64,000 nucleotides of DNA from an uncultured Methanosarcinales archaeon. GTDB lineage: Archaea; Nanobdellota; Nanobdellia; Woesearchaeales; JABIAG01. Location: assembly GCA_964544335.1 (NCBI GenBank), contig CAZJAJ010000004.1, forward strand, positions 67,689-131,688, in the 5' to 3' direction. The translations under genes were made by a program, and so were the position numbers. Of the stretch, positions 175 to 52,253 are shown one piece after another (position 1 is the stretch's first letter; every line of letters starts with the position of its first letter). Under the pieces are notes generated by a model, which searched no databases, was not told the DNA's origin, and saw only the letters and a program-made list of their open reading frames with translations.

Positions 175-1155
175 TTATTGCGATTTAATCTCATATCTCC
201 CACATTTTCCACTAATATCATCAAAAATGCTTCGTATGTGTTTTTGACTGATGTCCCCATATATGGTAAACGTCCCTTGCTTCATTCGCACTGATCCTGA
301 GTCATGACGTCTAATGTGTGATTGAATTTGGCGCTTTGCACTAATTAGCTGTGGCTTTTCAAAATTATCCGTTTCTACAACATATTCTCTGTGTTTCTTT
401 AACGTATCATCAAGACTATCAACAGATTGTCCCATTTTATCAATTTGATAATACATTAACGTTTGCTCACCATCAAATGATTGTTCACGTGCCATTCTTC
501 GTCCATAGTCACGCATTGCCCCACGAAGTAGACCATTATACGTCTCTCTTTCAGATTTAGGAATACATACCGTAGGCAACCCATTACTAAATAATATGGC
601 GTTCATTAACATTCGAGATGAACGTCCATTACCATCATAAAAAGGGTGAATTCTACAGATGTGCATATGCGCATTTAAAGCTCGAATACCAGGATTTAAG
701 TCAGTCATATTAAGATATTCAACAAGATCATACATCTCTCCTGCAACTCTTTGACCACCTGGCGGGTGCACATCACCGTGCCCAGACATTCTGACATCAC
801 CAGTTCTGTAATCATGACGTCTTGTATTTATACAAGATTGCCTCATGTGCGTTTCATCAAGGTGTGCAACAAGTTCAAGTAAGTATTCATCAGTAATATT
901 TCCTTCCTCGTAGTTTTCAGTTGCAAATTTCCATGCACTCATTAATCTATCAGTAAGTTCAGGTGTTTCCTGTTGATCTGGCTCAAGATGGACACTATGT
1001 CTGTTTGCATCATGAAATAGTGCATTTCGTGCTTCTTGGCGCCTTTTACAGGTATATTCAGGGTCATTTGCAATCCTTGCAGACTTTACTGCAATCCCAG
1101 ATAGTTTCAATTCAGGCATAAAATGATGATATTGTTTGATTAAATCTCGAGTCAT
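175..1155 (-). CDS. Fic/DOC domain protein
   Basis: Fic catalytic motif HPFYDGNGRSSR (613-648) preceded by HMHICRI helix; 326 aa. Confidence 0.85.
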   Translation of the reverse strand: MTRDLIKQYHHFMPELKLSGIAVKSARIANDPEYTCKRRQEARNALFHDANRHSVHLEPDQQETPELTDRLMSAWKFATENYEEGNITDEYLLELVAHLDETHMRQSCINTRRHDYRTGDVRMSGHGDVHPPGGQRVAGEMYDLVEYLNMTDLNPGIRALNAHMHICRIHPFYDGNGRSSRMLMNAILFSNGLPTVCIPKSERETYNGLLRGAMRDYGRRMAREQSFDGEQTLMYYQIDKMGQSVDSLDDTLKKHREYVVETDNFEKPQLISAKRQIQSHIRRHDSGSVRMKQGTFTIYGDISQKHIRSIFDDISGKCGRYEIKSQ

Positions 1156-1371
1156 GCGTCTTGGAATGAACTTTTAGTATATAAACGTTTGCTTTTTGTA
1201 ATCACTCGTGAGTGGTCAATACTAAAACAAATTATTTTCATTTTGCTTAAATGTTTTATGCTCGTTATTTTTAGTTTTTCATTGCAGTTTTCTACACCAA
1301 AAGTATTAGTTTTTGATATTAGAAAATAATTTATTAATTCATTAAGGAAAATCATAGAAAAGTGAACTTGC

Positions 1372-2082
1372 TTATCCCACATAAGAAATTTGTTTTTCCT
1401 TCTGGAGTTGGGAGACTTCAGAGGATTTTTGCACAAGACCTTTGACTTTTGCTTCAAAGAGTTCTGCTTGATGCAGTAGCGGCTCAGGATCCACCTTAAG
1501 GCCCAAATATTTGTCCAGAGAGAGGATTACGTTTGCAGCAGCTCTTGAGTCCGGCAGCTGAGAAGCAGTCTCAGCGAGCAAAGAAATGAACTTGTGTTGG
1601 TTTTGTGCAAGCATAGCTGCAGTTACTCCCACAATAATGCCTTCTTTGAGTTCTTTGAGATCATGTTTTTCTAGTGATGATTTGAATTTATTTTCATTCG
1701 TGTAGTAGAATACACTTTGCTCTTGTTCCTGTGGTGTTTGTGACATGACACCCTCTATAGAAATAATTTGTTTTGCTTGTGATTTTGTTGCAATGTCAAG
1801 AATGATGCTACTGATGTCCCATTCTTTCTTTTGTCCTGGAGCAATAGAATGTATGATGATAAGATTATACTTTTTTGCATAGTAGAGTGTGATGGGTTTG
1901 ATGAGCTTTCCTTCGTGAAGTGCTACAAGTGCTTGTTGATCTTTGAGAATGATTGCTCCTATCTCTTCTACATCCAGATGATTGATAAGAAATTCAGTTG
2001 TGATGGTTCCTACAAGTCCAAATCCAGGAAAGCCTTCAATAATTGTTGCACCTTTTGGTACTTTTTTTAGTTTTACGTCCAT
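1372..2082 (-). CDS. PAC2-family proteasome assembly chaperone
   Basis: N-terminal IIEGFPGFGLVGTI motif, GIIVGVTAAML and PDSRAAA segments typical of archaeal PAC2 proteins; 236 aa. Confidence 0.8.
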   Translation of the reverse strand: MDVKLKKVPKGATIIEGFPGFGLVGTITTEFLINHLDVEEIGAIILKDQQALVALHEGKLIKPITLYYAKKYNLIIIHSIAPGQKKEWDISSIILDIATKSQAKQIISIEGVMSQTPQEQEQSVFYYTNENKFKSSLEKHDLKELKEGIIVGVTAAMLAQNQHKFISLLAETASQLPDSRAAANVILSLDKYLGLKVDPEPLLHQAELFEAKVKGLVQKSSEVSQLQKEKQISYVG

Positions 2083-2127
2083 TATACTCGAGAAATTACA
2101 CTATTGGTGATATATAAACGTTGTGTT

Positions 2128-2790
2128 TTAAACAAGAGCAGTATCAGGAAATTCTCTTGTTGGTACGTCTATTTGTCCTCTATTTTGATCTTTTACTTGT
2201 AATAGTTGAATTGGTGCAAAGTTTCTATCTCGAACTCTTAGCGTACTAAATGGTTTCATTACACCTCTTACTCTTGCAAGATTTTCTCTACCAATTACTT
2301 CCTCAATTTCATTTTCCCAGTTATCTTGATATTCCAGTAATATGGGTCTTCCAAATAGAAAAGAATTAGGTGGTGCAATTGCGCGTGTGATCACTTCACC
2401 ACACACTATTTTATAGGAGTTCATTTTTGCAAATAATGTACTCAATTCAACTTCGGGAGTATAAAATTGTGCTGCAACAGCAAATTGCTTTCCAAGGTGC
2501 ACGGGAGCACTTATTTGATAAAATATTTCATCCATACGCATAGATCGTAGGTTACTTTCACGAAAAAAATTTCTTTTTTTTGCATCTATATCTGCATACA
2601 TGAGCGTTTCTAGAATTCTTTTTTCTCTTTTTTTAATTTGACTTAGTGATACCTCTAAATCATCAGTTAAATCGACATCAAGTGAGCTTATTTGCATAAA
2701 TGGAGGTGACCATGGTTCAATCATGCCTAACTCTCTGCCATCTCTTGCTACATATTGATTATTCCTGAATTCTACAGATGTTAATTGCAT
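2128..2790 (-). CDS. hypothetical protein
   Basis: 220-aa ORF filling the gap between PAC2 and tRNA-Thr; no family recognised. Confidence 0.55.
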   Translation of the reverse strand: MQLTSVEFRNNQYVARDGRELGMIEPWSPPFMQISSLDVDLTDDLEVSLSQIKKREKRILETLMYADIDAKKRNFFRESNLRSMRMDEIFYQISAPVHLGKQFAVAAQFYTPEVELSTLFAKMNSYKIVCGEVITRAIAPPNSFLFGRPILLEYQDNWENEIEEVIGRENLARVRGVMKPFSTLRVRDRNFAPIQLLQVKDQNRGQIDVPTREFPDTALV

Positions 2791-2847
2791 AAGGTTGCGT
2801 GAATTGTTGTTTGTTTAAAAAGAATTGGGTGTTTAGAAAAAAAGGAG

Positions 2848-2944
2848 AGCCTCCGCCGAGACTTGAACTCGGGACCTCTGCATCTTTGTTATGTGCTACT
2901 GCACAAATACCAATGCAACGCTCTACCAACTGAGCCACGGAGGC
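2848..2944 (-). tRNA. tRNA-Thr(GGT) with 24-nt intron at 37/38 (2884-2907); CCA not encoded
   Basis: Cloverleaf GCCTCCG/CGGAGGC, D arm GCTC/GAGC, anticodon GGT (2909-2911), T arm CCGAG-TTCAAGT-CTCGG; 73 nt after intron removal. Confidence 0.95.
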
Positions 2945-3037
2945 AATTTTTGTTTTTCGTACGGCCTTTTAGGTCGTACATGACCTTCGTGTCAAGTGAG
3001 AACGCACTTGCGCGTTATCAAATAAGCCACGGAGGCA
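2933..3037 (-). repeat. 13-bp duplication of the tRNA-Thr 5' end (2933-2945 and 3025-3037) heading a degenerate tRNA-like segment
   Basis: agccacggaggca occurs twice, 92 bp apart; the upstream copy continues into a D-arm-like segment and two hairpins. Confidence 0.6.
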
Positions 3038-3078
3038 TGTATACCAACTCGTGACGTCTGGTTGTTTTTTAAATATTA

Positions 3079-3495
3079 CTACTCCATGCCTTTACGAATG
3101 ATGCTAGATTTGAATGTATCTGGTTTGTGTGCGTTTTTAGAGCGCAATATTTGCGGTCTAAGGCCTCTTTGTGCGAGTTCTTGCTCTAGTTGATCGGTGA
3201 ATGCAAACTGGTCGTAGCCAAGAAATATGACGTCAGGATTCACTTCGACTACTACGGTGTATTTGTCTTCGCCTTCGTTGCCTAGCATGGCATGATCAAC
3301 AAATTCGAGTTCCTGGATGGCATGAAGTCGCTCTTCTTCGTTATGAACGGGAAGTTGCCCTTTTACTTTTTTTACCGTTGAGTCTCTTGCAACGACTACT
3401 ACGAGAATGTCTCCGTGTTCTTTTGCTTCTTGAAGGAAGTGTTTGTGTCCTTCGTGGAGTGTGTCAAAGGTTCCAAATGATAAGACGGTTGTCAT
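3079..3495 (-). CDS. ribL: FAD synthase / cytidylyltransferase-family protein
   Basis: SFGTFDTLHEGH (HxGH) motif, VVVARD, PDVIFLGYDQ; start taken at MTTVLSF (3495) rather than the longer ORF. Confidence 0.8.
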   Translation of the reverse strand: MTTVLSFGTFDTLHEGHKHFLQEAKEHGDILVVVVARDSTVKKVKGQLPVHNEEERLHAIQELEFVDHAMLGNEGEDKYTVVVEVNPDVIFLGYDQFAFTDQLEQELAQRGLRPQILRSKNAHKPDTFKSSIIRKGME

Positions 3496-3575
3496 GAGGT
3501 GATGTTTGGGTTGTTTTTTTTTTAAATATAGTGGATCACAATAACCCTTAAAAATGACCATTTTGTTGTATTTGT

Positions 3576-6008
3576 ATGAAGCTCACTCCCGGTATGCAGC
3601 AGTATATGGATGTTAAGAATGCGCATCCTGATTGTATCATTCTGTTTCGGATGGGTGATTTTTATGAGACGTTTTTTGAGGACGCAAAAATTTGTGCACG
3701 CGAACTTGAGATTACACTGACTGCAAGAGGGAAGGGTGAGACGCGAGCTCCACTTGCAGGTATTCCCTATCATTCTATTGACCCCTACATTGCTAAATTG
3801 ATTAAGAAAGGATACAAGGTGGGAATTGTTGAGCAAACAGAGGATCCAAAAAAAGCAAAAGGTCTTGTGAAACGAGATCTTGTTCGGATCATTACTCCGG
3901 GAACTGTTGTTGAATCACTGATGCTTTCTGAGGGAGAGAATAATTATTTGATGGCGCTTGCAAAAGAGAAAGATGATGTTGCTCTTGCGGTGTGTGATAT
4001 GTCTACAGGTGAGTTTTTGACTACGCAACTTTCCAAAGAAAAATTGATGAGTGAAGTTCGGCGTCTTTCACCAAAAGAAATTGTGTATCCTATGTCGCTT
4101 GATCATGCTGATTTTATTGCAGAGCTTAAAGAGCAACAATTTTTACTTCATGATTTTGATGATCGACATTTTCAACAAGAAAAAGCAATGCAGGAATTGA
4201 AAGATCATTTTAGTGTTGCAAACTTGAAAGGTTTTGGCGAGTATTCTGATTTGATGGTGCAAACAAGTGGGGCGTTGCTTTCCTACTTGAAGACGACGCA
4301 AATGACTGCACTCCCACATATTCAATCTTTGCACCAGTATGTGCTTGATGAGTTCATGCATCTTGATAGTTCGACTATTCGAAATTTAGAATTGGTTTCT
4401 GGATTGTTTAGTGATAGTGATGAAGGAACGTTACTAAAGGTTGTTGATCATACCGTTACGCCAATGGGTAAACGATTGCTTCGTAAATGGATTACAGCTC
4501 CACTTAAGCAGAAGATGATGATTGATGAGCGGCTTGATGCGGTTGCATCACTCAAGGATGATTTACTTTCTAGAACACGACTTCGTGAATCACTTTCAAA
4601 TATGTATGACATTGAACGACTGGTTGCACGTATCTCATTTGGTAATGCAAATCCAAAAGACTTAGTGAGTTTGAAACTATCTCTTGGTGAACTTCCTTCT
4701 GTTCGTACGTTACTTACCACACAGAAAGCACCGCTGCTTGTGTCTATTGCATCACTTCCGGATGTGTCACGTGCGCATGATTTGATTGCTAAAGCAATTA
4801 AGGATGAACCCAATACAACGCTTCGTGAAGGGAATGTCATTAAGAAAGGATACCATAGTGAACTTGATGAGCTTCGTGAAATTGCAACGCATGGGAAAGA
4901 TCATCTTGCTGCACTTGAAGAGAGAGAACGAGAAAAAACTGGCATTAAATCTCTTAAAGTGAAGTTCAACAAAGTGTTTGGATATTTTATTGAAGTGTCA
5001 AAATCAAATTTACATTTAGTTCCTGAAGAATACATTCGTAAACAAACACAAGTAAATGCTGAGCGATATATCACTGAAGAACTCAAAGAAATGGAAAATA
5101 AAATTCTTGGTGCTGAAGAACGCAATGTGCAATTGGAGTATGAATTATTTATGCAAGTGCTTGAAGAATTGAAACGATTTATTGCACCCATTCAAGATAT
5201 TGCAAAAAAACTTGCAACGCTTGATTGTATTATCTCACATGCACATCTTGCACAAGCACGAGCGTATGTAAAACCTGAAATGAATGAAGATGGTGTGCTT
5301 GAACTCATTGATTCGAGGCATCCTGTTGTTGAGGCATTGTCTTCTCATCCTTTTATTCCAAACAATTGTTCTCTTCGTGAAGATGCACGCATGATGATTA
5401 TTACTGGCCCTAATATGGCAGGTAAGTCCACATACATGCGGCAAGTTGCTTTGATCACACTTATGGCACACATTGGATGTTTTGTTCCTGCGCAATCTGC
5501 TTCTGTTTGTGTTGTTGATCGCATCTTTACGCGTATTGGTGCGTATGATGATTTGGTTTCAGGACAGAGTACGTTCATGGTTGAGATGAATGAGACGGCA
5601 AATATTTTACATAATGCTACAAAGGATAGTCTAGTTATTGTTGATGAAATTGGAAGAGGTACTTCAACGTACGATGGTCTCTCACTTGCGTTTGCTATTG
5701 CTGAATATTTGTATGCGAATATTTCTTGCATGACGTTATTTGCAACACACTATCATCATTTGAATCAACTTGCGGATATGCATGAGGGGATTAAAAATTA
5801 TAATATTGCTGTTGAAGAACGCGATGATGATATTATTTTCCTTCGAAAGATTGTTGAAGGCGGTACTGATAAAAGTTATGGTATTCAGGTTGCGCGACTT
5901 GCAGGTGTTCCTCAAGCTGTGATTGATACATCAAAAAAAGTGATGAGTGAATTTGAAGAGAAGAAAGAGAGGAGGGAGCGAGATTTTACGCTCAATAGAT
6001 TTTTCTAA
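3576..6008 (+). CDS. mutS: DNA mismatch repair protein MutS (MutS1 type)
   Basis: TPGMQQY, LFRMGDFYETF mismatch-binding motif, GPNMAGKSTYMRQ Walker A, STFMVEM, DEIGRGT, FATHYH, SYGIQVARLAG. Confidence 0.97.
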   Translation: MKLTPGMQQYMDVKNAHPDCIILFRMGDFYETFFEDAKICARELEITLTARGKGETRAPLAGIPYHSIDPYIAKLIKKGYKVGIVEQTEDPKKAKGLVKRDLVRIITPGTVVESLMLSEGENNYLMALAKEKDDVALAVCDMSTGEFLTTQLSKEKLMSEVRRLSPKEIVYPMSLDHADFIAELKEQQFLLHDFDDRHFQQEKAMQELKDHFSVANLKGFGEYSDLMVQTSGALLSYLKTTQMTALPHIQSLHQYVLDEFMHLDSSTIRNLELVSGLFSDSDEGTLLKVVDHTVTPMGKRLLRKWITAPLKQKMMIDERLDAVASLKDDLLSRTRLRESLSNMYDIERLVARISFGNANPKDLVSLKLSLGELPSVRTLLTTQKAPLLVSIASLPDVSRAHDLIAKAIKDEPNTTLREGNVIKKGYHSELDELREIATHGKDHLAALEEREREKTGIKSLKVKFNKVFGYFIEVSKSNLHLVPEEYIRKQTQVNAERYITEELKEMENKILGAEERNVQLEYELFMQVLEELKRFIAPIQDIAKKLATLDCIISHAHLAQARAYVKPEMNEDGVLELIDSRHPVVEALSSHPFIPNNCSLREDARMMIITGPNMAGKSTYMRQVALITLMAHIGCFVPAQSASVCVVDRIFTRIGAYDDLVSGQSTFMVEMNETANILHNATKDSLVIVDEIGRGTSTYDGLSLAFAIAEYLYANISCMTLFATHYHHLNQLADMHEGIKNYNIAVEERDDDIIFLRKIVEGGTDKSYGIQVARLAGVPQAVIDTSKKVMSEFEEKKERRERDFTLNRFF

Positions 6009-7759
6009 TGGCCATTCATATTTTACCAGATTCGTTGATTAATAAAATTGCTGCAGGTGAAGTAATTGAACGACCTGCTTCTGTTGTAAAAGAACTTATT
6101 GAAAATTCCATTGATGCTAAGGCAAATAGTATTGAAGTGAGTATTGAACAAGCCGGTCTTGGTTTAATTAAAGTTGTGGATAATGGTGTTGGCATGGATG
6201 AGAAAGATGCAAAGTTGTGTTTTGCTCGTCATGCAACGTCAAAGATTCATGATGGAAAAGATATTTTTGCCATTGGATCTCTTGGATTTCGTGGTGAAGC
6301 ACTTGCAAGTATTTCAGAAGTTGCTCATGTTACTTTGTTAACAAAGGATAGTGCTGATGTGGGAACGATGCTTGTTGTTGAGAGCGGAAAGGTACTCAAG
6401 GAAGAAGCAGCTAGTCGCGCACGCGGGACCACTATTGAAGTAAGAGATTTATTTTTTAATGTTCCTGCACGTAAAGCGTATTTGAAATCTGTTCAGGTTG
6501 AGATGAATCATATTACGAATGTGGTTATGCAATATGCGCTTATTCATCCTGAGATCAATATTCGGTTGTTGTCTAATGGAAAAGAAATCATTCATGCACC
6601 CATTACTGATAATTTTTTGAACAATGTGATGTTTGTGTATGGAACTGAAATTGGAAAAGAATTGATTCCTGTCGATTTTAGTTTAAATAACATTCATGTG
6701 ACGGGTGTTATTTCTCGTCCTTCATATACGAGGGGAGATAGAAGTAATCAATCGTTGTATATTAATTCGCGGCATATCAAACATTCTCTGATTACCGATA
6801 GTGTGTATGATGGGTATGAACGTTTATTATTTACTGGAAGACATCCTGTTTTTGTGTTGAATATTGACATGGATTTTTCTCTTGTTGATGTAAATGTGCA
6901 TCCTGCAAAACGAGAAGTTCGTTTGAAAAATGAGCAGGAACTTGAGATTGTTGTTCGTCAGGCTGTTGCTGATGCACTTTCTGATGCAAATTTAATTACG
7001 CCTGCAACACTTGAGAATGAGACTACGCAGGCACCGATTGCCAATTATACGTTTAGTACCGATACACAAGAGACACTGCAGGTTGCAGAGGAGGTTGAGA
7101 AATATGTGAGTACTCGTCAAGCGCCTGATGTGGTTCAAAAAGAACGTGAACGTGTGTATGTTGGTGATGAAAAAGTGAAACTTGGTCCGTTTAATATTTT
7201 AGGTCAAGTCAATCGTACGTTTGTAATTGCAGAAAATCCACAAGGTCTTTGTATTATTGATCAGCATGCTGCACATGAGCGTGTGAATTATGAAACGTTT
7301 CTTGCAGATCTTGAAGGGAAGAGTTTGAAAATTCAAGAACTCATTACGCCAAAGGTACTTGAAGTAACTCCGGTGCAATTTGGTATTGCACTTGCAAACA
7401 AAGAGCAAATTGAATCACTTGGGTTTAGATTTGAAGAATTTGGAAATAATAGTTTGAAGCTTTCGGCAATTCCACAATTGTTTGATCGTTTGAAGTCAAC
7501 ATTATTTTTGGATATTTTGAATCAGATTGAGTCGTCTGGTGCAAAAGTGATAGATGATGAAGTACTTGATAGAATTATTCGCTTTAGTTGTAAGGCATCT
7601 ATTAAGGCTGGGGAAGAATTGACTACGATTCAGCTGAAGACCTTGCTTGGGCAACTTGAAGGATGTAGTAATCCATATTCCTGTCCGCATGGTCGACCTA
7701 CGCTTATTCAGTTATCGATTGCTGATCTTGAGAAGAAGTTTAAGCGAAGTGGGTGGTAG
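6008..7759 (+). CDS. mutL: DNA mismatch repair endonuclease MutL
   Basis: IAAGEVIERPASVVKELIENSIDA, GFRGEALASI, DVNVHPAKREV, DQHAAHERVNYE, SCK and CPHGRP motifs; 1-bp overlap with mutS. Confidence 0.97.
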   Translation: MAIHILPDSLINKIAAGEVIERPASVVKELIENSIDAKANSIEVSIEQAGLGLIKVVDNGVGMDEKDAKLCFARHATSKIHDGKDIFAIGSLGFRGEALASISEVAHVTLLTKDSADVGTMLVVESGKVLKEEAASRARGTTIEVRDLFFNVPARKAYLKSVQVEMNHITNVVMQYALIHPEINIRLLSNGKEIIHAPITDNFLNNVMFVYGTEIGKELIPVDFSLNNIHVTGVISRPSYTRGDRSNQSLYINSRHIKHSLITDSVYDGYERLLFTGRHPVFVLNIDMDFSLVDVNVHPAKREVRLKNEQELEIVVRQAVADALSDANLITPATLENETTQAPIANYTFSTDTQETLQVAEEVEKYVSTRQAPDVVQKERERVYVGDEKVKLGPFNILGQVNRTFVIAENPQGLCIIDQHAAHERVNYETFLADLEGKSLKIQELITPKVLEVTPVQFGIALANKEQIESLGFRFEEFGNNSLKLSAIPQLFDRLKSTLFLDILNQIESSGAKVIDDEVLDRIIRFSCKASIKAGEELTTIQLKTLLGQLEGCSNPYSCPHGRPTLIQLSIADLEKKFKRSGW

Positions 7760-7761
7760 AG

Positions 7762-8502
7762 TTATTTAGAACATACTACACAGGTAAGTTCTCTGTCATG
7801 AACATAATCAGTATTACTTTCACACCATGCTGAGTTACATTGCATTTCTGTTTGGTATACAATGCCCTGACCATTTCCTGTACCAAGAGAATTAAAGTCA
7901 TCATCTAAACAAATTTCATCCTGATTTGCGTGACTGTAGTACCCCCCTACATAGTACCCGTCATATTGTTCTGTCCATCCTGATGGGCAATTGTTTATGC
8001 CTACAATGTCCATGGTTACTGATGTCCTGGGTACATAACACACTGCACACGAGATTATTGCATCGTTAGGGAATGTAGTTCCAAGGTCATACCCATTTGT
8101 TCGTATTTGCACTGGATAAAATAATTGCCCATCGCTGTTTCTATCATTATATGTGCCATAGTTTGGACTTTGTGGCATGCATCTCATTTGAGGACCACTG
8201 TGACTATGATATGATCCTGCTGCCCAACCATCGTAGACTTTTTCACCACCGGCAGGACAGTTTGTATTACCCCAATGCGTGTATACTGATGCAATACTAT
8301 CAAAGCTTTCTTGGATGGTTTTAATTTCCCCATCTATTTCTATAACGACTTCATCTGCGCTGTGTCCAAAGGTGGCTGCTTGTGATGCTGCTTTGTTAAA
8401 TGCATCATTGTATGCTGATACGCCTACGATTGCAATGAGTGTGAGAATGAGTGCTACGAGTATGTACAGGTGTTTTTTTGCTATGTTAATCTCTACTTTC
8501 AC
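7762..8502 (-). CDS. secreted/membrane-anchored protein with Cys-rich C-terminal domain resembling spongin short-chain collagen C4 / collagen IV NC1
   Basis: N-terminal hydrophobic segment; two internal repeats (WGNTNCP...YDG...CMP...CAVC; GINNCPSGW...YDG...CLD...ELTCVVCSK). Confidence 0.75.
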   Translation of the reverse strand: MKVEINIAKKHLYILVALILTLIAIVGVSAYNDAFNKAASQAATFGHSADEVVIEIDGEIKTIQESFDSIASVYTHWGNTNCPAGGEKVYDGWAAGSYHSHSGPQMRCMPQSPNYGTYNDRNSDGQLFYPVQIRTNGYDLGTTFPNDAIISCAVCYVPRTSVTMDIVGINNCPSGWTEQYDGYYVGGYYSHANQDEICLDDDFNSLGTGNGQGIVYQTEMQCNSAWCESNTDYVHDRELTCVVCSK

Positions 8503-8580
8503 GAAGATTAATTAATATATAGGTTCTTAAATTCTTCGATTTACCTCTATCTTTTTATGTAAGAGCTGTTTCCTTCCTTC

Positions 8581-8880
8581 ATGGTTAGTAATGAACAGGT
8601 TGATAATTATCTTCAGGCAACTGATTATTTTGCACTTATCCGTGACGCCTTTGTTCCCTTAGAGCATGCAGAAGTGTATTTTACGCATTTAGAACAGCTA
8701 GAAACAGGCATACACGGTCTACTTGCCGATGTAACTGAGGATAATCTTGTTGCTGTTGTCAAGCATCTTGGACATTTTATCCATTGTACTAGACCGGATG
8801 GGTATGGGCACATCCTAGACTTATTGTCGTATGATACACGTATTGCTACTGCGTTTGTAGAAGGTTTTGAGTTACGCTGA
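8581..8880 (+). CDS. hypothetical protein
   Basis: 99-aa ORF divergent from the 7762-8502 gene, protein-like composition. Confidence 0.5.
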   Translation: MVSNEQVDNYLQATDYFALIRDAFVPLEHAEVYFTHLEQLETGIHGLLADVTEDNLVAVVKHLGHFIHCTRPDGYGHILDLLSYDTRIATAFVEGFELR

Positions 8881-9408
8881 TTGTTTTCTTAGGTTCTTGA
8901 ATTCTTTTTCTAGCTTTTCTTTTTTCTGTAGTAATTCATTGTACTCATACCTGCACTCTTCAACGATTCGTCTCATTCTCTTAATTTGATGGGGTGATGC
9001 TTCAAGGTCATGTAAGGCATTGTTGTATTGCTTTACTTTTTCTCTGTATTGACTTTCTGCGATGTTCAACTTACTTCGAGCATATCTGTTTGCTTCAGAT
9101 GCATTGATTGCTTTTGTATTACGTGTTACGATGCCTTTTTTGAACAGTTCATATGTTTGTCTTTCTCTTTGATTCCACTCTTGCATTTGTATTCGTACAT
9201 GTTCTCTTACATGTTCTGCCTGTGGTTTAAAGAAATTTTGTTCTATATCTTTTATTATCTCTTCAGAAGTTTGCATGGATTGTTGTGTTGTTTCAATTCT
9301 ATTCTCATATTGAAGCATTTTTTCAGCAAGTTCTTTCATTCTGAGCATTATTTTACCAAGATCTTCTCCTGTTTTTTCTAATACACTTTTTTTCTTAAAC
9401 AGACCCAT
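8872..9408 (-). CDS. coiled-coil hypothetical protein
   Basis: MGLFKKK start followed by continuous K/E/Q-rich heptads. Confidence 0.6.
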   Translation of the reverse strand: MGLFKKKSVLEKTGEDLGKIMLRMKELAEKMLQYENRIETTQQSMQTSEEIIKDIEQNFFKPQAEHVREHVRIQMQEWNQRERQTYELFKKGIVTRNTKAINASEANRYARSKLNIAESQYREKVKQYNNALHDLEASPHQIKRMRRIVEECRYEYNELLQKKEKLEKEFKNLRKQSA

Positions 9409-9489
9409 GTGTTTTTTCTTGTTTTTTTCTTTATAATCTTTTTGTTTGGAGGATAACACATATAAGCGATGAGTTTTCTGCGTTGTTTC

Positions 9490-9741
9490 ATGAGAAAAGT
9501 GTATGGTCAGTCACAGATTACGCCTTGTCCGTTTTGTAGCGAGTCTTCATTTGTTCGCAATGCGCAGGGCATTCCTGTATGTCAGGCGCACAAGGATGAA
9601 GTGTTTCCTGATGTGAAGTGTACATGTGGATCCTGGCTTGAGCGAAAAGAAGGAAAATTTGGCACGTTTTTTGTGTGTGCCAATTGCGGCATAATCAATA
9701 TGAGAAAAGCAATTTCTATGTTTAATATGTCTAAGAGGTGA
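9490..9741 (+). CDS. small zinc-binding protein (zinc-ribbon-like)
   Basis: CPFC, CQAH, CTCG and CANC motifs with GKFGTFFVC; start 9469 or 9490. Confidence 0.65.
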   Translation: MRKVYGQSQITPCPFCSESSFVRNAQGIPVCQAHKDEVFPDVKCTCGSWLERKEGKFGTFFVCANCGIINMRKAISMFNMSKR

Positions 9742-28213: not shown

Positions 28214-30022
28214 ATGGACATGAAAGAGCTTTGTGCAATGGCAACCATCCTTCGCAAGGACTCCATTGAGATGACTACGGCTGCGGGATCTGGACACCCC
28301 ACAAGCTGTTTGTCGTGTGCGGATGTGATGAGTGCCCTCTTCTTTCATGCCATGTCTTATGATACTTCTGATCCACAGAATCCAAATAATGATCAGTTTA
28401 TTTTGAGTAAGGGACATGCGGCACCTATTTTGTATGCTGCATTGTCACATGCTGGGTGTATTGATGATGATTTACTGGGTTTGCGTTCATTTAAGAGCAG
28501 GCTTGAGGGGCATCCCAATCCTCGTTCTTTACCTTGGGTGAAGGTGGGAACGGGTTCTTTGGGTCAAGGTCTTTCTATTGGTCTTGGTATGGCACTTGCT
28601 GCACGTGAACAAAAGCGTAAGTATATGACGTATGTGTTGCTTGGTGATGGTGAGATTGCTGAAGGGTCAGTGTATGAGGCACTTGAACTTGCAAACGAGT
28701 ATGGTGTGAATAATTTGTGTGCTATTGTTGATGTGAATCGTCTTGGACAATCTGGTCCTACGATGATTGAGCATAGAATGAAGGTGTATAAGAAACGGTT
28801 TAGTTCATTTGGTTGGGATGTGATTGTTGTAAATGGTCATAGTATGCGGGCTGTTGTTCGCGCTCTTGATAAGGCAAAGAGTAGTAAGAAGCCAACGTGT
28901 ATTCTTGCTAAGACGTACAAGGGATATGGTGTTTCGTTCTTGCAAGATAAGGATGGGTGGCACGGTAAGTCACTGAGCTTAGAGGAAGCTGGAGAAGCAT
29001 ACAAGGAACTTGGTATGGCCGTTGCACCTCATATGAAAATTAAGCGTGTGAAGAAAGCCAAAGGTATTGATGTGCGGGCTGTGAAGTTGTCCTGTAATTT
29101 TAAGAAAGGTGATCTTGTTGCAACACGTGATGCGTATGGTGTTGGTCTTAAACTACTTGCTAAGAAGAGTAAACATCTCATTGTTACTGATGGGGAAGTT
29201 CGAGGAAGTACTCGTGCAGGTAAAATGCTTGATGTTGCTCCCGATAGATTTTTTGATGGGTATATTGCTGAGCAAAATTTAGTTGGTCTGAGTCTTGGGC
29301 TTGCATGCCAGGGACATCCCGTGTTTACATCTACTTTTTCTGCATTTTTTACTCGGGCGCATGATCAGATTCGTATGGGTGCTCTTTCGTTAGTTAATTT
29401 GAACTATGTTGGTTCACATGTGGGCGTATCTATTGGCGCTGATGGTGTTTCACAAATGGCTCTTGGTGATCTTGGGATGTTTCGTTCATTTCCTGATATG
29501 AAAGTGGTGTGTCCATCTGATGCTGTGAGTACGGTTAAATTACTTGAGCAGATGCATAATGATCCAGGTCAATGCTATATGCGAACGGCTCGTCCAAAGA
29601 CGCCTGTTTTATATGGTAATTCTGAAAGCTTTCCTATTGGGACGTTTAAGATTGTGCATAGTTTGCCAAAACCTAAAGCGTTGATTTTGGCTATGGGTGT
29701 TACGGTTGCTGAAGCCTCTGAAGCGTTTAAGGAACTGAAGAGTTCTGGTGTGAACACTACAGTGCTTGATTGTTATTCACTCAAACCCTTTGATGATAAG
29801 AAGTTGCAACGGATGGCAAAAGGTGTGAAGAAAATTGTTGTGGTAGAAGATCATTATGAACAAGGCGGTCTTGGTGAGCGTGTGTTTAGAAGTCTTAGTG
29901 GCATGAAGGTCGATATTGTGCATTTGTATGTGCATGGTGTTCCACATTCTGGTAGTGGTAGAGAACTACTTGGTGTGTATGGTATTGATAAGGATGCTAT
30001 TGTGAAGGCTGTTAGGAAGTAG
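28214..30022 (+). CDS. tkt: transketolase, single-chain
   Basis: GSGHPTS, SKGHAAP, GSLGQG, GDGE...N TPP motif, IAEQN, GADGVSQM, EDHY. Confidence 0.93.
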   Translation: MDMKELCAMATILRKDSIEMTTAAGSGHPTSCLSCADVMSALFFHAMSYDTSDPQNPNNDQFILSKGHAAPILYAALSHAGCIDDDLLGLRSFKSRLEGHPNPRSLPWVKVGTGSLGQGLSIGLGMALAAREQKRKYMTYVLLGDGEIAEGSVYEALELANEYGVNNLCAIVDVNRLGQSGPTMIEHRMKVYKKRFSSFGWDVIVVNGHSMRAVVRALDKAKSSKKPTCILAKTYKGYGVSFLQDKDGWHGKSLSLEEAGEAYKELGMAVAPHMKIKRVKKAKGIDVRAVKLSCNFKKGDLVATRDAYGVGLKLLAKKSKHLIVTDGEVRGSTRAGKMLDVAPDRFFDGYIAEQNLVGLSLGLACQGHPVFTSTFSAFFTRAHDQIRMGALSLVNLNYVGSHVGVSIGADGVSQMALGDLGMFRSFPDMKVVCPSDAVSTVKLLEQMHNDPGQCYMRTARPKTPVLYGNSESFPIGTFKIVHSLPKPKALILAMGVTVAEASEAFKELKSSGVNTTVLDCYSLKPFDDKKLQRMAKGVKKIVVVEDHYEQGGLGERVFRSLSGMKVDIVHLYVHGVPHSGSGRELLGVYGIDKDAIVKAVRK

Positions 30023-50155: not shown

Positions 50156-50615
50156 AGGGGAGTATGCGCTTAAGGTAAGGAGTAATAAGAGCATGAGGCC
50201 TTTACTTCATGTGGGTGATGTGTTGTTGTATTCTCATCGTCCCATTAAACGAGGTGATGTAGTATTATATGCTGCTAAAAATAAGGTGGTTGTTCACAGA
50301 GTGCTTAGTTTTACTATGCGACATGGAGAGCAATCCTTATTGTGTAAGGGTGACAGTATGGCTTTTGAAGACCAGTGGATTATTCCAAGAAAGTGTATTT
50401 TGGGTGTTTTAGATACTATCGTTCGTGGTAAGAAGGTTATTTCACTTCATTCGGGAAAATTTCTTTATGTGAATCGTATCCTTTACATTCTTTCAAGAGT
50501 GCACTTTTGTTTTCGCTCAATGCTGTCAAGACGTTTGAGAAAAAAATATGTTAAACCACTCCATAAGATTAATTTGTTTTTTTTAAAATGTGTAGAAGTT
50601 ATTTTTAGACTATAA
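50142..50615 (+). CDS. S24/S26-family peptidase
   Basis: SMRPLL, GDVVLY, VVHRVL, KGD; overlaps the nucleotidyltransferase gene by 14 bp. Confidence 0.85.
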   Translation: MKTHKGEYALKVRSNKSMRPLLHVGDVLLYSHRPIKRGDVVLYAAKNKVVVHRVLSFTMRHGEQSLLCKGDSMAFEDQWIIPRKCILGVLDTIVRGKKVISLHSGKFLYVNRILYILSRVHFCFRSMLSRRLRKKYVKPLHKINLFFLKCVEVIFRL

Positions 50616-52253
50616 CTGTCGCTTTATTTTTGATTGTGCTACTTTTTTAATCTCATCATAGGTGTTTTGTGTTATATTTTCAATTAATTCTTCTTTTTCT
50701 TTAGTGAATGTGTAATTTGATTTTTTATGTCCTACCCAATTTCTTCCTTCTATTTGTTGGAGGATGTTCTCTTCTTTTCCATGAGGATCTATTGAGAGAA
50801 ATTTATAGAGAGCTTTTAGTACATTTTTTTGAGGATCAATGAGATCTTCATATTCTATTATGAATGTATTGTTTGGATAAAGTAGAGAAAATTCCAACAT
50901 GCAGTTGTTAACTTCTTTCCAATCCTCTGAAAGTAATTTGGTTGATCTCTGTACTTCTGCCATTTTGAATGACCTTCGATAGCTTTCAATTACTGCTTTT
51001 GGATTTCTTACCAAAAATACAAACTTTGCTTGCGGATAGAGTGAGATTAGAAATTCGAATGTCTTTCTATCTCTGTCCCCAAACCGTACTTCCTTATACC
51101 CCCAGTATTTTTTTTTGAGAGGATTAAACAATGATTCAATGAAAGTTCTACATGAACGTTTAATGTGATCATCGCCAAACCAATTTGTCCATGCCTGCCA
51201 TACACTAGGATTCTTTAATTGTGCAGTTGCTTCTTTTAGGTTATTGAGTGGTTTCTTTTTCAGTGTAAGATTTTGTTCTTCATAGAGTGTATAATATATT
51301 TTAGTGAGGTGATGCATTATGTCTCTGTTTTCACCCCAGATGGTTATGTCAGAATGAGCATTTAGTATCCGTTGCAATAATGTTGTCCCACTTCTTGCCA
51401 TACCATACATGAAGAGAGGAGATTCTGGGTTAGGTACGTGTGTTTTAATGGATACAAGGATTGATTTTGCTTTTTCTTTTATTTTTAGAGGAATTGTTTT
51501 CTTTTTTTTCAATTTTAATGTGGTGTATGTGTTGTATAGCAGGTACATTTCTTTAGAGTAAATTGGGTGTATTGAATGTGCTTTTTTTGAAAGAAGTATA
51601 TCTGTTTTTTCTTTTCTACTTTTTACGTAGACGTTTCTGTGTCTTCCGTTGCATGCTGTGAGGTCAATCCCGTTTTGTTTGAGAATGTCTCCGACCATCA
51701 TATCTTCTGTTGATGATTCGGGAATTATTTTTTCGTATTTTTCTTTTTTGAGTGGTACGCGTTCTCCATACCACCAAGGATTTCCTATTCCTTTTTGAAA
51801 ATCATAGGTTGCAAGTGTATCTACTGCTTTTTTGCTTAGCATATAACAGCCACCTGATGCCCATGTAATTCTTCTTTTTTCTTTTCGTCTGCTGTTATTT
51901 ACAATGACACCATAATAGTCACATTTTGGAATTGTATCTTCTAACCATTCATTTGGAAGAAAGAGCGTGTCGTCATCAATTTTGAAGACATAATCAAATT
52001 TTTTGTTTTTTGAGAGGTATTTTGCTAGTTGGTGTGTTTTTTTTGCAAGGTCTTGATAGGTGTCTTCACATTCTACAAAGAGCCTTTTTTCTTTTTCATC
52101 ATAATGTTCTTTTTTTGCACCTTCTACAAAGAACCATTCTACGTTATCTGGGATTAATTTTGCCCATGTTTCTCTTACTGCTTTTTGTCTTGTTTCTCTG
52201 TGTGCCTTGCAAGAGGTGATTACGAAAATGACTTTTTTATTCTTTAATTGCAT
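50610..52253 (-). CDS. GT31-like glycosyltransferase fused to a sulfotransferase
   Basis: N-half: RETW, EDTYQDLAKK, KIDDD, ASGGCYMLS, EDMMVG; C-half: GMARSGTT, WGYKE, VRNP...S, YEDL. Confidence 0.82.
   Translation of the reverse strand: MQLKNKKVIFVITSCKAHRETRQKAVRETWAKLIPDNVEWFFVEGAKKEHYDEKEKRLFVECEDTYQDLAKKTHQLAKYLSKNKKFDYVFKIDDDTLFLPNEWLEDTIPKCDYYGVIVNNSRRKEKRRITWASGGCYMLSKKAVDTLATYDFQKGIGNPWWYGERVPLKKEKYEKIIPESSTEDMMVGDILKQNGIDLTACNGRHRNVYVKSRKEKTDILLSKKAHSIHPIYSKEMYLLYNTYTTLKLKKKKTIPLKIKEKAKSILVSIKTHVPNPESPLFMYGMARSGTTLLQRILNAHSDITIWGENRDIMHHLTKIYYTLYEEQNLTLKKKPLNNLKEATAQLKNPSVWQAWTNWFGDDHIKRSCRTFIESLFNPLKKKYWGYKEVRFGDRDRKTFEFLISLYPQAKFVFLVRNPKAVIESYRRSFKMAEVQRSTKLLSEDWKEVNNCMLEFSLLYPNNTFIIEYEDLIDPQKNVLKALYKFLSIDPHGKEENILQQIEGRNWVGHKKSNYTFTKEKEELIENITQNTYDEIKKVAQSKIKRQL

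Follow-up and report, generated by a model that had tools for sequence, protein, structure and literature searches.

Domains of the C4/NC1 type have been reported from animals and the filasterean Ministeria only (PMC5395295, PMC5560861); the origin of C4 has been placed in Filozoa, and the spongins have been called 'specific of invertebrate metazoans' (Grau-Bove et al., PMC5560861). The spongin variant of NC1 is defined by seven cysteines common to collagen IV, three spongin-specific cysteines, the loss of four collagen IV cysteines and the lack of the HSQ motif (Fidler 2017, PMC5395295). The subject of our analysis is a protein of 246 amino acids (aa), hereafter P0001, encoded on the minus strand at positions 7762-8502 of a 64,000-nucleotide stretch of DNA (the window; GenBank assembly GCA_964544335.1, contig CAZJAJ010000004.1, positions 67,689 to 131,688 of the forward strand) from an organism placed by GTDB among the Woesearchaeales. 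That the C-terminal domain of P0001 belongs to the spongin short-chain collagen NC1-like family, that its host is an archaeon and that the gene is genuine is, as a joint claim, highly probable in our assessment. No paper on a spongin-type domain in prokaryotes turned up in our literature search.

A single-protein search of Pfam and NCBIfam with P0001 returned nothing relevant (a spurious TPR_21 match at E 0.037), and a single-sequence search found just four homologues among 5.8 billion proteins. The profile of these four homologues reached a Pinctada protein with the UniRef name 'Short-chain collagen C4-like', and a profile restricted to the domain found 3,141 proteins, many of them carrying the collagen repeat PF01391, with matches named short-chain collagen C4 or C4-like in Nematostella, Acropora, Porites, Exaiptasia, Branchiostoma, Pinctada, Mya, Mytilus, Amphiura and Saccoglossus. 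Exhaustive searching with HMMER retrieved 4,406 representatives at E <= 1e-3. A hidden Markov model (HMM) kept non-circular by building it from 125 family members, with the archaeal sequences and the bacterial member P0011 excluded, matched P0001 at 134 bits and E 4.5e-34 (Z = 1.8e9), spanning positions 3-182 of the 182 in the model and residues 70-246 of the protein. In both the domain-only and the exhaustive search P0001 took its rank amid named animal proteins. Cysteines 82, 108, 152, 155, 172, 198, 222, 227, 241 and 244 of P0001 occupy the family's ten Cys columns, which are 99-100% Cys in 128 sequences. The preliminary description of this DNA, made without database searches, had proposed a spongin short-chain collagen-type domain, and that proposal was borne out by the HMM match and by all ten family cysteines. 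These results indicate that the C-terminal domain of P0001 is a true member of the spongin short-chain collagen NC1-like ('short-chain collagen C4-like') family. The gene and its product are organised as follows.

7762..8502, minus strand: complete gene for P0001, 246 codons and a TAA stop codon (7762-7764), with a GTG start at 8502 (open reading frame list, sequence read)
8413..8469, minus strand: the sole strongly hydrophobic segment, LYILVALILTLIAIVGVSA, residues 12-30 (Kyte-Doolittle)
8296..8412, minus strand: linker of about 40 aa, residues 31-69, with GHSADE[VI]VI..DGE (sequence comparison)
8029..8295, minus strand: first C4-like subdomain, residues 70-158 (VYTHWGNTNCP...CMP...ISCAVCYVP; Cys 82, 108, 152, 155; half-against-half hhalign, Cys map, model pLDDT 85-96)
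7765..8028, minus strand: second C4-like subdomain, residues 159-246 (NCPSGWTEQYDGY...ICLD...C..WC...RELTCVVCSK; Cys 172, 198, 222, 227, 241, 244; profile HMM, half-against-half hhalign, Cys map, model pLDDT 84-98)
8503..8580, minus strand: AT-rich intergenic region of 78 bp upstream of the gene (direct sequence read)

The open reading frame (ORF), its signal or transmembrane (TM) segment and the GHSADEV linker are present as the preliminary description had them, according to the ORF list and the hydrophobicity plot, and the motifs it quoted (VYTHWGNTNCP, CMP, CAVC, NCPSGWTEQYDGY, ICLD and RELTCVVCSK) all occur in P0001. The C-terminal domain comprises 177 aa (residues 70-246), is acidic, contains ten cysteines and reaches the C-terminus, so that the end of the domain is the end of the protein, as in other family members. 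The two internal repeats that had been read from the sequence emerged clearly from a comparison of N-half (70-158) and C-half (159-246) profiles with hhalign (probability 97.9%, E 4.2e-13, 82 columns). With the spongin short-chain collagens P0001 shares the ten conserved cysteines, the tandem build of two subdomains, the extreme C-terminal position, the ending ...ELTCVVCSK and the lack of any HSQ motif in the domain. It differs from them in having neither a Gly-X-Y nor a coiled-coil stalk, in its N-terminal hydrophobic segment and 40-aa GHSADEV linker, in the shortening of the family loop GGGSNY to SGPQM, and in its archaeal rather than metazoan host. Its branch is long and divergent, with a mean distance of 1.42 against 0.81 among animal members and 33-42% identity to other members. 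Collagen Gly-X-Y is present in 85 of 266 family proteins, and coiled coils precede the domain in P0005-P0010; P0001 contains no Gly-X-Y run of three or more triplets and no PF01391 match, as had been noted from the sequence. Because the collagen part is absent, P0001 is not a short-chain collagen but a protein that carries the domain only. The top representatives of the family, P0012 (3,949 aa) and P0013 (3,827 aa), contain nine and six domain copies per predicted protein; they may be genuine giants built as tandem arrays, or else gene models that were fused across tandem duplicates of animal genes.

The relation to collagen IV NC1 was assessed against human alpha1(IV) NC1 (100% identical to 1LI1_A) and six further verified NC1 sequences. 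A phmmer search of the Protein Data Bank (PDB) with P0001 picked up the CAVC...CPSGW...GY junction alone. A full-length-protein profile gave coiled-coil noise from animal N-termini and was discarded for the domain-only profile, with which NC1 chains were the only PDB sequences at E <= 10 (E 0.11-2.2, not significant alone). Comparison of the spongin-type family with NC1 by hhalign yielded probabilities of 60-71% and P values of 3.7e-5 to 8.5e-5, co-linear from end to end and pairing the C-P, CAVC, CPSGW and terminal CxVC motifs, and 20 column-shuffled controls gave P values of 0.095-0.87. In our MAFFT alignment nine, not seven, of the family cysteines co-align with NC1 cysteines, and the split between shared and specific cysteines varies with the alignment. 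An AlphaFold2 model of P0001 on the 128-sequence alignment reached a predicted local distance difference test score (pLDDT) of 89.9 and a predicted TM-score (pTM) of 0.84; it replaced a model on a five-sequence alignment that was unusable (pLDDT 45). The 22 best Foldseek matches of this model in the PDB were all collagen IV NC1 (E 1.6e-4 to 3.8e-3, probability 0.95-1.00), followed by PCSK9 as the next fold at E 0.09; with TM-scores of only 0.25-0.30, these matches reflect local structure and sequence, not a rigid-body overlay.

Collagen IV NC1 (PF01413; PDB 1LI1, 1M3D, 5NAX, 8TYS) and the P0001 domain both consist of two tandem homologous, beta-rich C4-type subdomains, which form two lobes in the P0001 model, and have in common C-P...Y.G, CAVC, CPSGW..Y.GY and the terminal CxVC. 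They differ in cysteine number (12 in NC1, 10 in P0001, where three NC1-only Cys columns are absent), in the two HSQ motifs of NC1 that P0001 lacks, and in length, the P0001 domain being about 50 residues shorter; the sulfilimine residues Met93 and Lys211 align to gaps in P0001. Spongin-type domains and true NC1 are separated with 100% bootstrap support in neighbour-joining (NJ) trees, and the Pfam C4 model performed poorly across the family, with one of 11 spongin-type members reaching E 0.23. A convergent resemblance, in which a beta domain rich in cysteines came to look like collagen IV NC1 without being related to it, would be in keeping with the missing Pfam C4 match, the PDB sequence E values of 0.11-2.2 and Foldseek TM-scores of 0.25-0.30. 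However, spongin-type membership appears beyond doubt, the P value of 3.7e-5 between the family and NC1 stands against 0.095 or more for shuffled profiles, the tandem-duplicate organisation is common to both, and NC1 chains are the only significant fold matches. Published analyses agree on the relation (Fidler 2017, PMC5395295; Aouacheria 2006 as cited in PMC5560861). We regard convergence as very improbable and remote homology of the P0001 domain to collagen IV NC1 as likely. The homology that the preliminary description took as established would thus stand in a remote form (hhalign P 3.7e-5, 22 NC1 Foldseek matches), without a PF01413 match or global superposition to go with it.

The host is an archaeon, because the aIF2-gamma gene product (12522-13772) scores 526 bits with the curated archaeal equivalog TIGR03680, above its cutoff of 514.5, the window encodes PAC2 and Cbf5 (DKCLD, TruB and PUA domains), its genes are packed tightly with frequent overlaps in the prokaryotic manner, and it contains two tRNA genes that presumably bear introns.

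2848-2944, minus strand: tRNA gene of 97 nt, presumably intron-containing, tRNA-Lys(ttt) (ARAGORN)
10254-10372, minus strand: tRNA gene of 119 nt, presumably intron-containing, detected by Rfam alone at 44.8 bits and missed by ARAGORN

The P0001 gene adjoins bacterial-type mutS and mutL, and is convergent with mutL, whose stop lies at 7759, 2 nt away. Upstream, a TTTAAG element at 8526-8531 begins 29 nt ahead of the GTG. The archaeal TATA-box consensus is TTTAWA, and by analogy the element would fit an archaeal TATA box with a leaderless transcript.

An assembly chimera or contamination, with an animal gene fragment joined to or binned with the archaeal contig, has precedents in mis-binned animal spongin-type genes that do occur in GTDB representative metagenome-assembled genomes (MAGs), two of which (L004, L005) were inspected and are described below. 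Against it stands a Logan assembly of run SRR15635848 (L008, 2,040 bp), which is independent of the window assembly and 100% identical to window positions 6855-8894, across both gene junctions. Furthermore, three other datasets provided contigs (L001 and L002 from JGI, and L010, a marine ENA contig of 26.6 kb) in which an orthologue, P0002 (47% identical), is found at this locus, with mutL on one side and a Zn-ribbon gene on the other. The P0001 gene itself consists of one ORF without introns, lies 2 nt from the stop of mutL, is host-like in GC content, and has a GTG start and a prokaryotic signal segment. With an identical independent assembly and a syntenic orthologue, the chimera that would have undone the preliminary description is excluded for practical purposes, and we assign it a negligible probability.

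The window is collinear with L010 over about 14 kb, where amino-acid identity is 83% for MutS, 81% for MutL, 83% for the Zn-ribbon ORF and 85% for aIF2-gamma (79-85% across the neighbouring genes) but just 47% for the P0001 gene. Its GC content is 40.4%, against 38.2% for the window. Because the orthologue shares locus and synteny and the GC content is host-like, the P0001 gene is vertically inherited within a small marine archaeal clade, and it evolves much faster than its neighbours. The region between mutL and the conserved Zn-ribbon gene (window 8503-10162; L010 8396-11453) is a variable island in which small genes have been replaced between lineages. In the window it holds a 99-aa ORF (8581-8880) and a Lys-rich, coiled-coil-like ORF of 195 aa (8872-9459); in L010, a 216-aa protein with an HExxH motif (LAHEYGHHMH), a 181-aa coiled-coil protein and a 236-aa protein. 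None of these island genes had a match in Pfam, NCBIfam or PHROGs. The P0002-type copies in L001 (1722-2489) and L010 (10001-10768) are 97.8% identical, with 17 substitutions, 16 of which (nine synonymous) fall within the first 69 codons, whereas the 186 codons of the domain contain a single change, which is not synonymous. Such a mosaic points to recombination or to a recent sweep that affected the domain part. A dN/dS of 0.24 between the two copies is based on these 17 substitutions only, too few to inform, and P0001 and P0002 are too divergent for a selection test. A viral origin was considered and rejected, as neither the P0001 gene nor its neighbours gave a BFVD structural match, an IMG/VR locus or a PHROGs match.

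Our analysis of the domain family also revealed members in other prokaryotes. P0226 lies on a 175.6-kb contig (CAZPHC010000010.1, L014; genome GCA_964586155.1, 71% GC) with a TonB-dependent receptor, Peptidase_M75 and other bacterial genes nearby, and P0200 and P0011 lie on contigs of about 70% GC, beside type IX secretion system (T9SS)/FlgD_ig and bacterial TSP3/DUF4215 proteins. In about ten further bacterial-style representatives a signal peptide and typical bacterial surface modules precede the domain, and two bacterial-style members (P0085, P0121) combine short Gly-X-Y runs with it. The bacterial proteins P0226, P0200, P0011, P0116, P0106, P0143 and P0156 resemble P0001 in carrying the domain at the C-terminus of exported proteins in a prokaryotic gene context, the contigs of P0116 and P0085 being too short to inform on the latter. 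The bacterial members differ from it in their large N-terminal modules (a beta-rich 'NFQG...LW.E...G.F.V.LG' module, Cys repeats, P_proprotein, short Gly-X-Y runs), and their domains are about 50% identical to animal sequences, much closer than P0001. P0157 lies on a 30.5% GC archaeal contig with TBP, RadA, an ATP-dependent DNA ligase and RNA polymerase subunit L, and represents a second archaeal lineage with the domain. It shares with P0001 the TM-linker-domain layout and an N-terminal MEIKINIKK that matches the M-E-I-x-I-N-I-x-K-K of P0001; the minimal layout of TM segment, short linker and domain recurs in P0107.

Other domains of animal or eukaryotic type were observed on the same bacterial contigs. 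P0011 carries a proprotein-convertase P-domain, and the gene downstream of it (L009, 1521-2615, plus strand) encodes a signal peptide, a DUF4215 Cys repeat, TSP3 repeats of bacterial type and a match to the C-terminal region of thrombospondin (TSP_C, E 2.4e-9), which places two animal-matrix-type domains side by side on a contig of 70.6% GC. The P0226 contig encodes an HTTM/VKGC-lumenal (vitamin-K carboxylase-like) protein, Dicty_CTDC-repeat proteins and a 1,705-aa RCC1/WD40 protein, so that several eukaryote-like domains are clustered in this Gram-negative genome of 71% GC.

Matches from a GTDB scan in four MAG loci (Dehalococcoidia, Nitrospirales, Metamycoplasmataceae) were rejected as prokaryotic copies and taken for animal-like DNA. 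In the 'Nitrospirales' MAG (L005, CBDBCZ010000011.1, a 705-kb contig), positions 9809-10537 encode a Gly-X-Y collagen stretch fused to the spongin-type domain, and in the 'Dehalococcoidia' MAG (L004, CAXXBX010000119.1) positions 263-4290 contain gypsy-type retroelement pol ORFs. L004 and L005 are gene-poor, with low coding density and 41-44% GC; L006 shares its contig with L004, and L007 (CBDHHR010001025.1, 'Metamycoplasmataceae' MAG) was judged on GC alone. These animal-like contigs in GTDB species-representative MAGs are probably host contamination or the product of mis-binning.

The identity of P0001 to verified members is 33-42%, whether these are prokaryotic or animal. In two NJ bootstrap analyses the archaeal pair was supported at 98-99%; apart from the split between spongin-type domains and true NC1, all other groupings lacked strong support. 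The archaeal pair forms a long, deep branch without supported placement, and these trees identify no donor. Because P0001 is equally distant from prokaryotic and animal members and the archaeal branch is unplaced, a direct recent transfer from an animal to the archaeon is not indicated by the sequences.

The preliminary description had proposed a module acquired from or shared with animals and possibly used in host attachment, that is, a domain taken directly from an animal with which the archaeon would attach to an animal or other cellular host by mimicry of its matrix. The family is overwhelmingly animal, with thousands of cnidarian, mollusc, amphioxus and echinoderm proteins, and eukaryote-like proteins do occur in animal symbionts. 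Attachment would also be in line with the up-regulation of short-chain collagen C4 genes in the adhesive pedal disc of Exaiptasia (PMC6626399). However, P0001 is no closer to any animal group than to the prokaryotic members, its long branch has no supported placement and its GC content is fully host-like. In two archaeal lineages from marine metagenomes the gene is passed on vertically within a housekeeping locus that is itself conserved, and the copies in bacterial contigs (P0226, P0200, P0011) and in the second archaeal lineage (P0157) offer prokaryotic donors. As to attachment, the window encodes glucokinase, G6PD, transketolase, a MoxR-VWA-BatA cluster, MFS transporters and lactate permease in addition to MutS and MutL, a gene content that looks like that of a free-living marine heterotroph and not of a reduced episymbiont, with nothing in it pointing to an animal or cellular host. 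Acquisition from animals combined with host attachment is thus improbable, and neither part of the earlier proposal was upheld.

For the prokaryotic copies as a whole, the ultimate link to animals would be one of horizontal transfer, in one direction or the other. An old prokaryotic surface module later acquired by the stem of animals and filastereans would be one such scenario. The domain would then have served bacteria and archaea as a C-terminal oligomerising knob, and its fusion to Gly-X-Y after the transfer would have produced the spongins and possibly the NC1 domain of collagen IV. This scenario would be consistent with the copies on at least three verified bacterial contigs, in about ten further architectures of bacterial style and in two archaeal lineages, with the combination of short Gly-X-Y runs and domain already seen in P0085 and P0121, and with the deep branching of the window clade, without supported placement, in the spongin-type clade. 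Against it, animals have by far the most members and the greatest diversity of them, the domain is sparse among prokaryotes, and the domain identity of about 50% between bacteria and animals suggests a relatively recent exchange. We consider a prokaryotic origin of the C4 domain doubtful, with only a slim chance of being correct.

P0001 begins with MKVEINIAKKHLYILVALILTLIAIVGVSAY, and its Kyte-Doolittle hydrophobicity (19-residue mean) has a maximum of 2.7 at residues 12-30, with no other stretch above 1.6. K9-K10 precede this 19-residue segment, which ends in V-S-A|Y, and V-[SDN]-A-Y is kept in all three archaeal copies of the window clade; the segment would be either a signal-anchor or a Sec signal peptide, in the latter case with a possible cleavage site at V-x-A|Y. 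A class III (pilin-type) signal peptide was ruled out by the lack of a [KR]-[GA] cleavage motif ahead of the hydrophobic stretch. GHSADEV (residues 46-52, window 8347-8367) lies within the linker motif GHSADEVVIEIDGE; GHSADE[VI]VI..DGE is invariant between P0001 and P0002, two proteins otherwise 47% identical, and GHSADEV is confined to the P0001-type gene in both the window and L010. We suggest that the basic N-terminus and single hydrophobic segment would direct P0001 to export by the Sec pathway, after which the protein would be N-terminally anchored or released by cleavage at V-S-A|Y, placing the linker of about 40 residues and the 177-residue, ten-cysteine domain outside the cell. An extracellular location of P0001 is likely. 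The archaeal surface protein announced by the preliminary description is accordingly secure as to its host (TIGR03680, tRNAs, PAC2, Cbf5), and its location at the surface is plausible, from the hydrophobic N-terminus only.

The collagen IV NC1 fold trimerises via beta-hairpin exchange between neighbouring chains, and two such trimers form a hexamer. By analogy, the P0001 ectodomain may oligomerise, probably as a trimer, through the same hairpin exchange, and its cysteines may form five extracellular disulfides, archaeal disulfide formation being assumed. Oligomerisation is proposed because the domain caps trimer-prone stalks, collagen or coiled coil, in other family members. A sulfilimine cross-link would be impossible for P0001 because the equivalents of Met93 and Lys211 are absent. 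Without a stalk to nucleate, the archaeal domain itself would be the working head of a surface knob, acting in adhesion or in building a surface matrix. Our favoured reading of P0001 is an exported, disulfide-stabilised and probably oligomerising surface knob, which we put at slightly better than an even chance; the oligomeric adhesive or matrix role in particular, argued from analogy, is tentative. On this reading the domain would be one of its own sparse occurrences among prokaryotes (bacteria and two or more archaeal lineages), inherited vertically and evolving fast in a small marine archaeal clade.

Several points weigh against the surface knob. The P0001 model superposes poorly on NC1 crystals as a whole (TM-score 0.25-0.30, root-mean-square deviation 15-19 Å) and does not show a geometry competent for the NC1 quaternary structure, Pfam C4 (PF01413) finds no match to P0001 even at E <= 10, and trimerisation is an analogy with collagen IV NC1. 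The genes beside P0001 are small ORFs, uninformative on function, and we know of no binding partner for any spongin-type NC1 domain. The main functional rival is a secreted, cleaved and soluble factor, whether a component of a matrix or biofilm or a binder directed at competitors or viruses, encoded in a fast-evolving variable island. Such a factor would be consistent with the conserved V-x-A|Y at the end of the hydrophobic segment, which fits cleavage by signal peptidase I, with a gene inside an island where other small genes are swapped between relatives, with an identity of 47% against 79-85% for the neighbours, and with the 16 of 17 substitutions in the first 69 codons of two near-identical copies, which suggest recombination. 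However, no toxin-like or enzymatic motif was found in P0001, its hydrophobic segment is long (19 residues) and anchor-like, and neither the gene nor its neighbours have matches in PHROGs or in collections of viral structures or viral contigs. A soluble factor is thus rather unlikely, and we retain the surface knob as the favoured reading.

Other genes of the window are of interest in their own right. A 547-aa protein (50610-52253, minus strand) combines Sulfotransfer_3 (E 4e-24) with a weak N-terminal match to Galactosyl_T (PF01762, mostly eukaryotic; E 8e-8), and may be another animal-like glycan-modifying enzyme of this archaeon. The oxidative branch of the pentose-phosphate pathway is unusual in archaea; at 15935-18149 and 28214-30022 (plus strand) the window encodes a bacterial-type G6PD (G6PD_N/C) and then a glucokinase/ROK gene, with a full-length transketolase nearby. 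Between 18638 and 25091 (plus strand) lie a BatA N-terminal domain with DUF7406/7407/7408, a 784-aa VWA protein, DUF7502 and a MoxR AAA+ ATPase, a BatA/VWA/MoxR-type cluster that may be a further surface or aggregation system. Near the window start (175-1155, minus strand), a 326-aa protein belongs to the Fic/DOC family (E 2.9e-14).

To our knowledge, spongin-type NC1 domains have neither a solved structure nor a known ligand, and P0001, at about 180 residues, is a minimal, collagen-free and intron-free version of the domain that could be used to study its assembly and binding. As a by-product, several of the representative MAGs in GTDB have been flagged for animal contamination. Collagen IV and its spongin variants are regarded as founding inventions of animal tissues, and the present finding would moderately to strongly surprise specialists in matrix evolution. 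On the sequence evidence, a known domain family occurs here in an architecture, and in domains of life, that are new for it. The stand-alone domain of this archaeon and the copies in bacteria and another archaeal lineage indicate that the spongin-type domain spans all three domains of life and is not restricted to animals, contrary to the literature (PMC5395295, PMC5560861). Given this distribution, phylogeny can be used to test where the NC1 recognition module originated, with transfer from animals to prokaryotes and the reverse as the alternatives.

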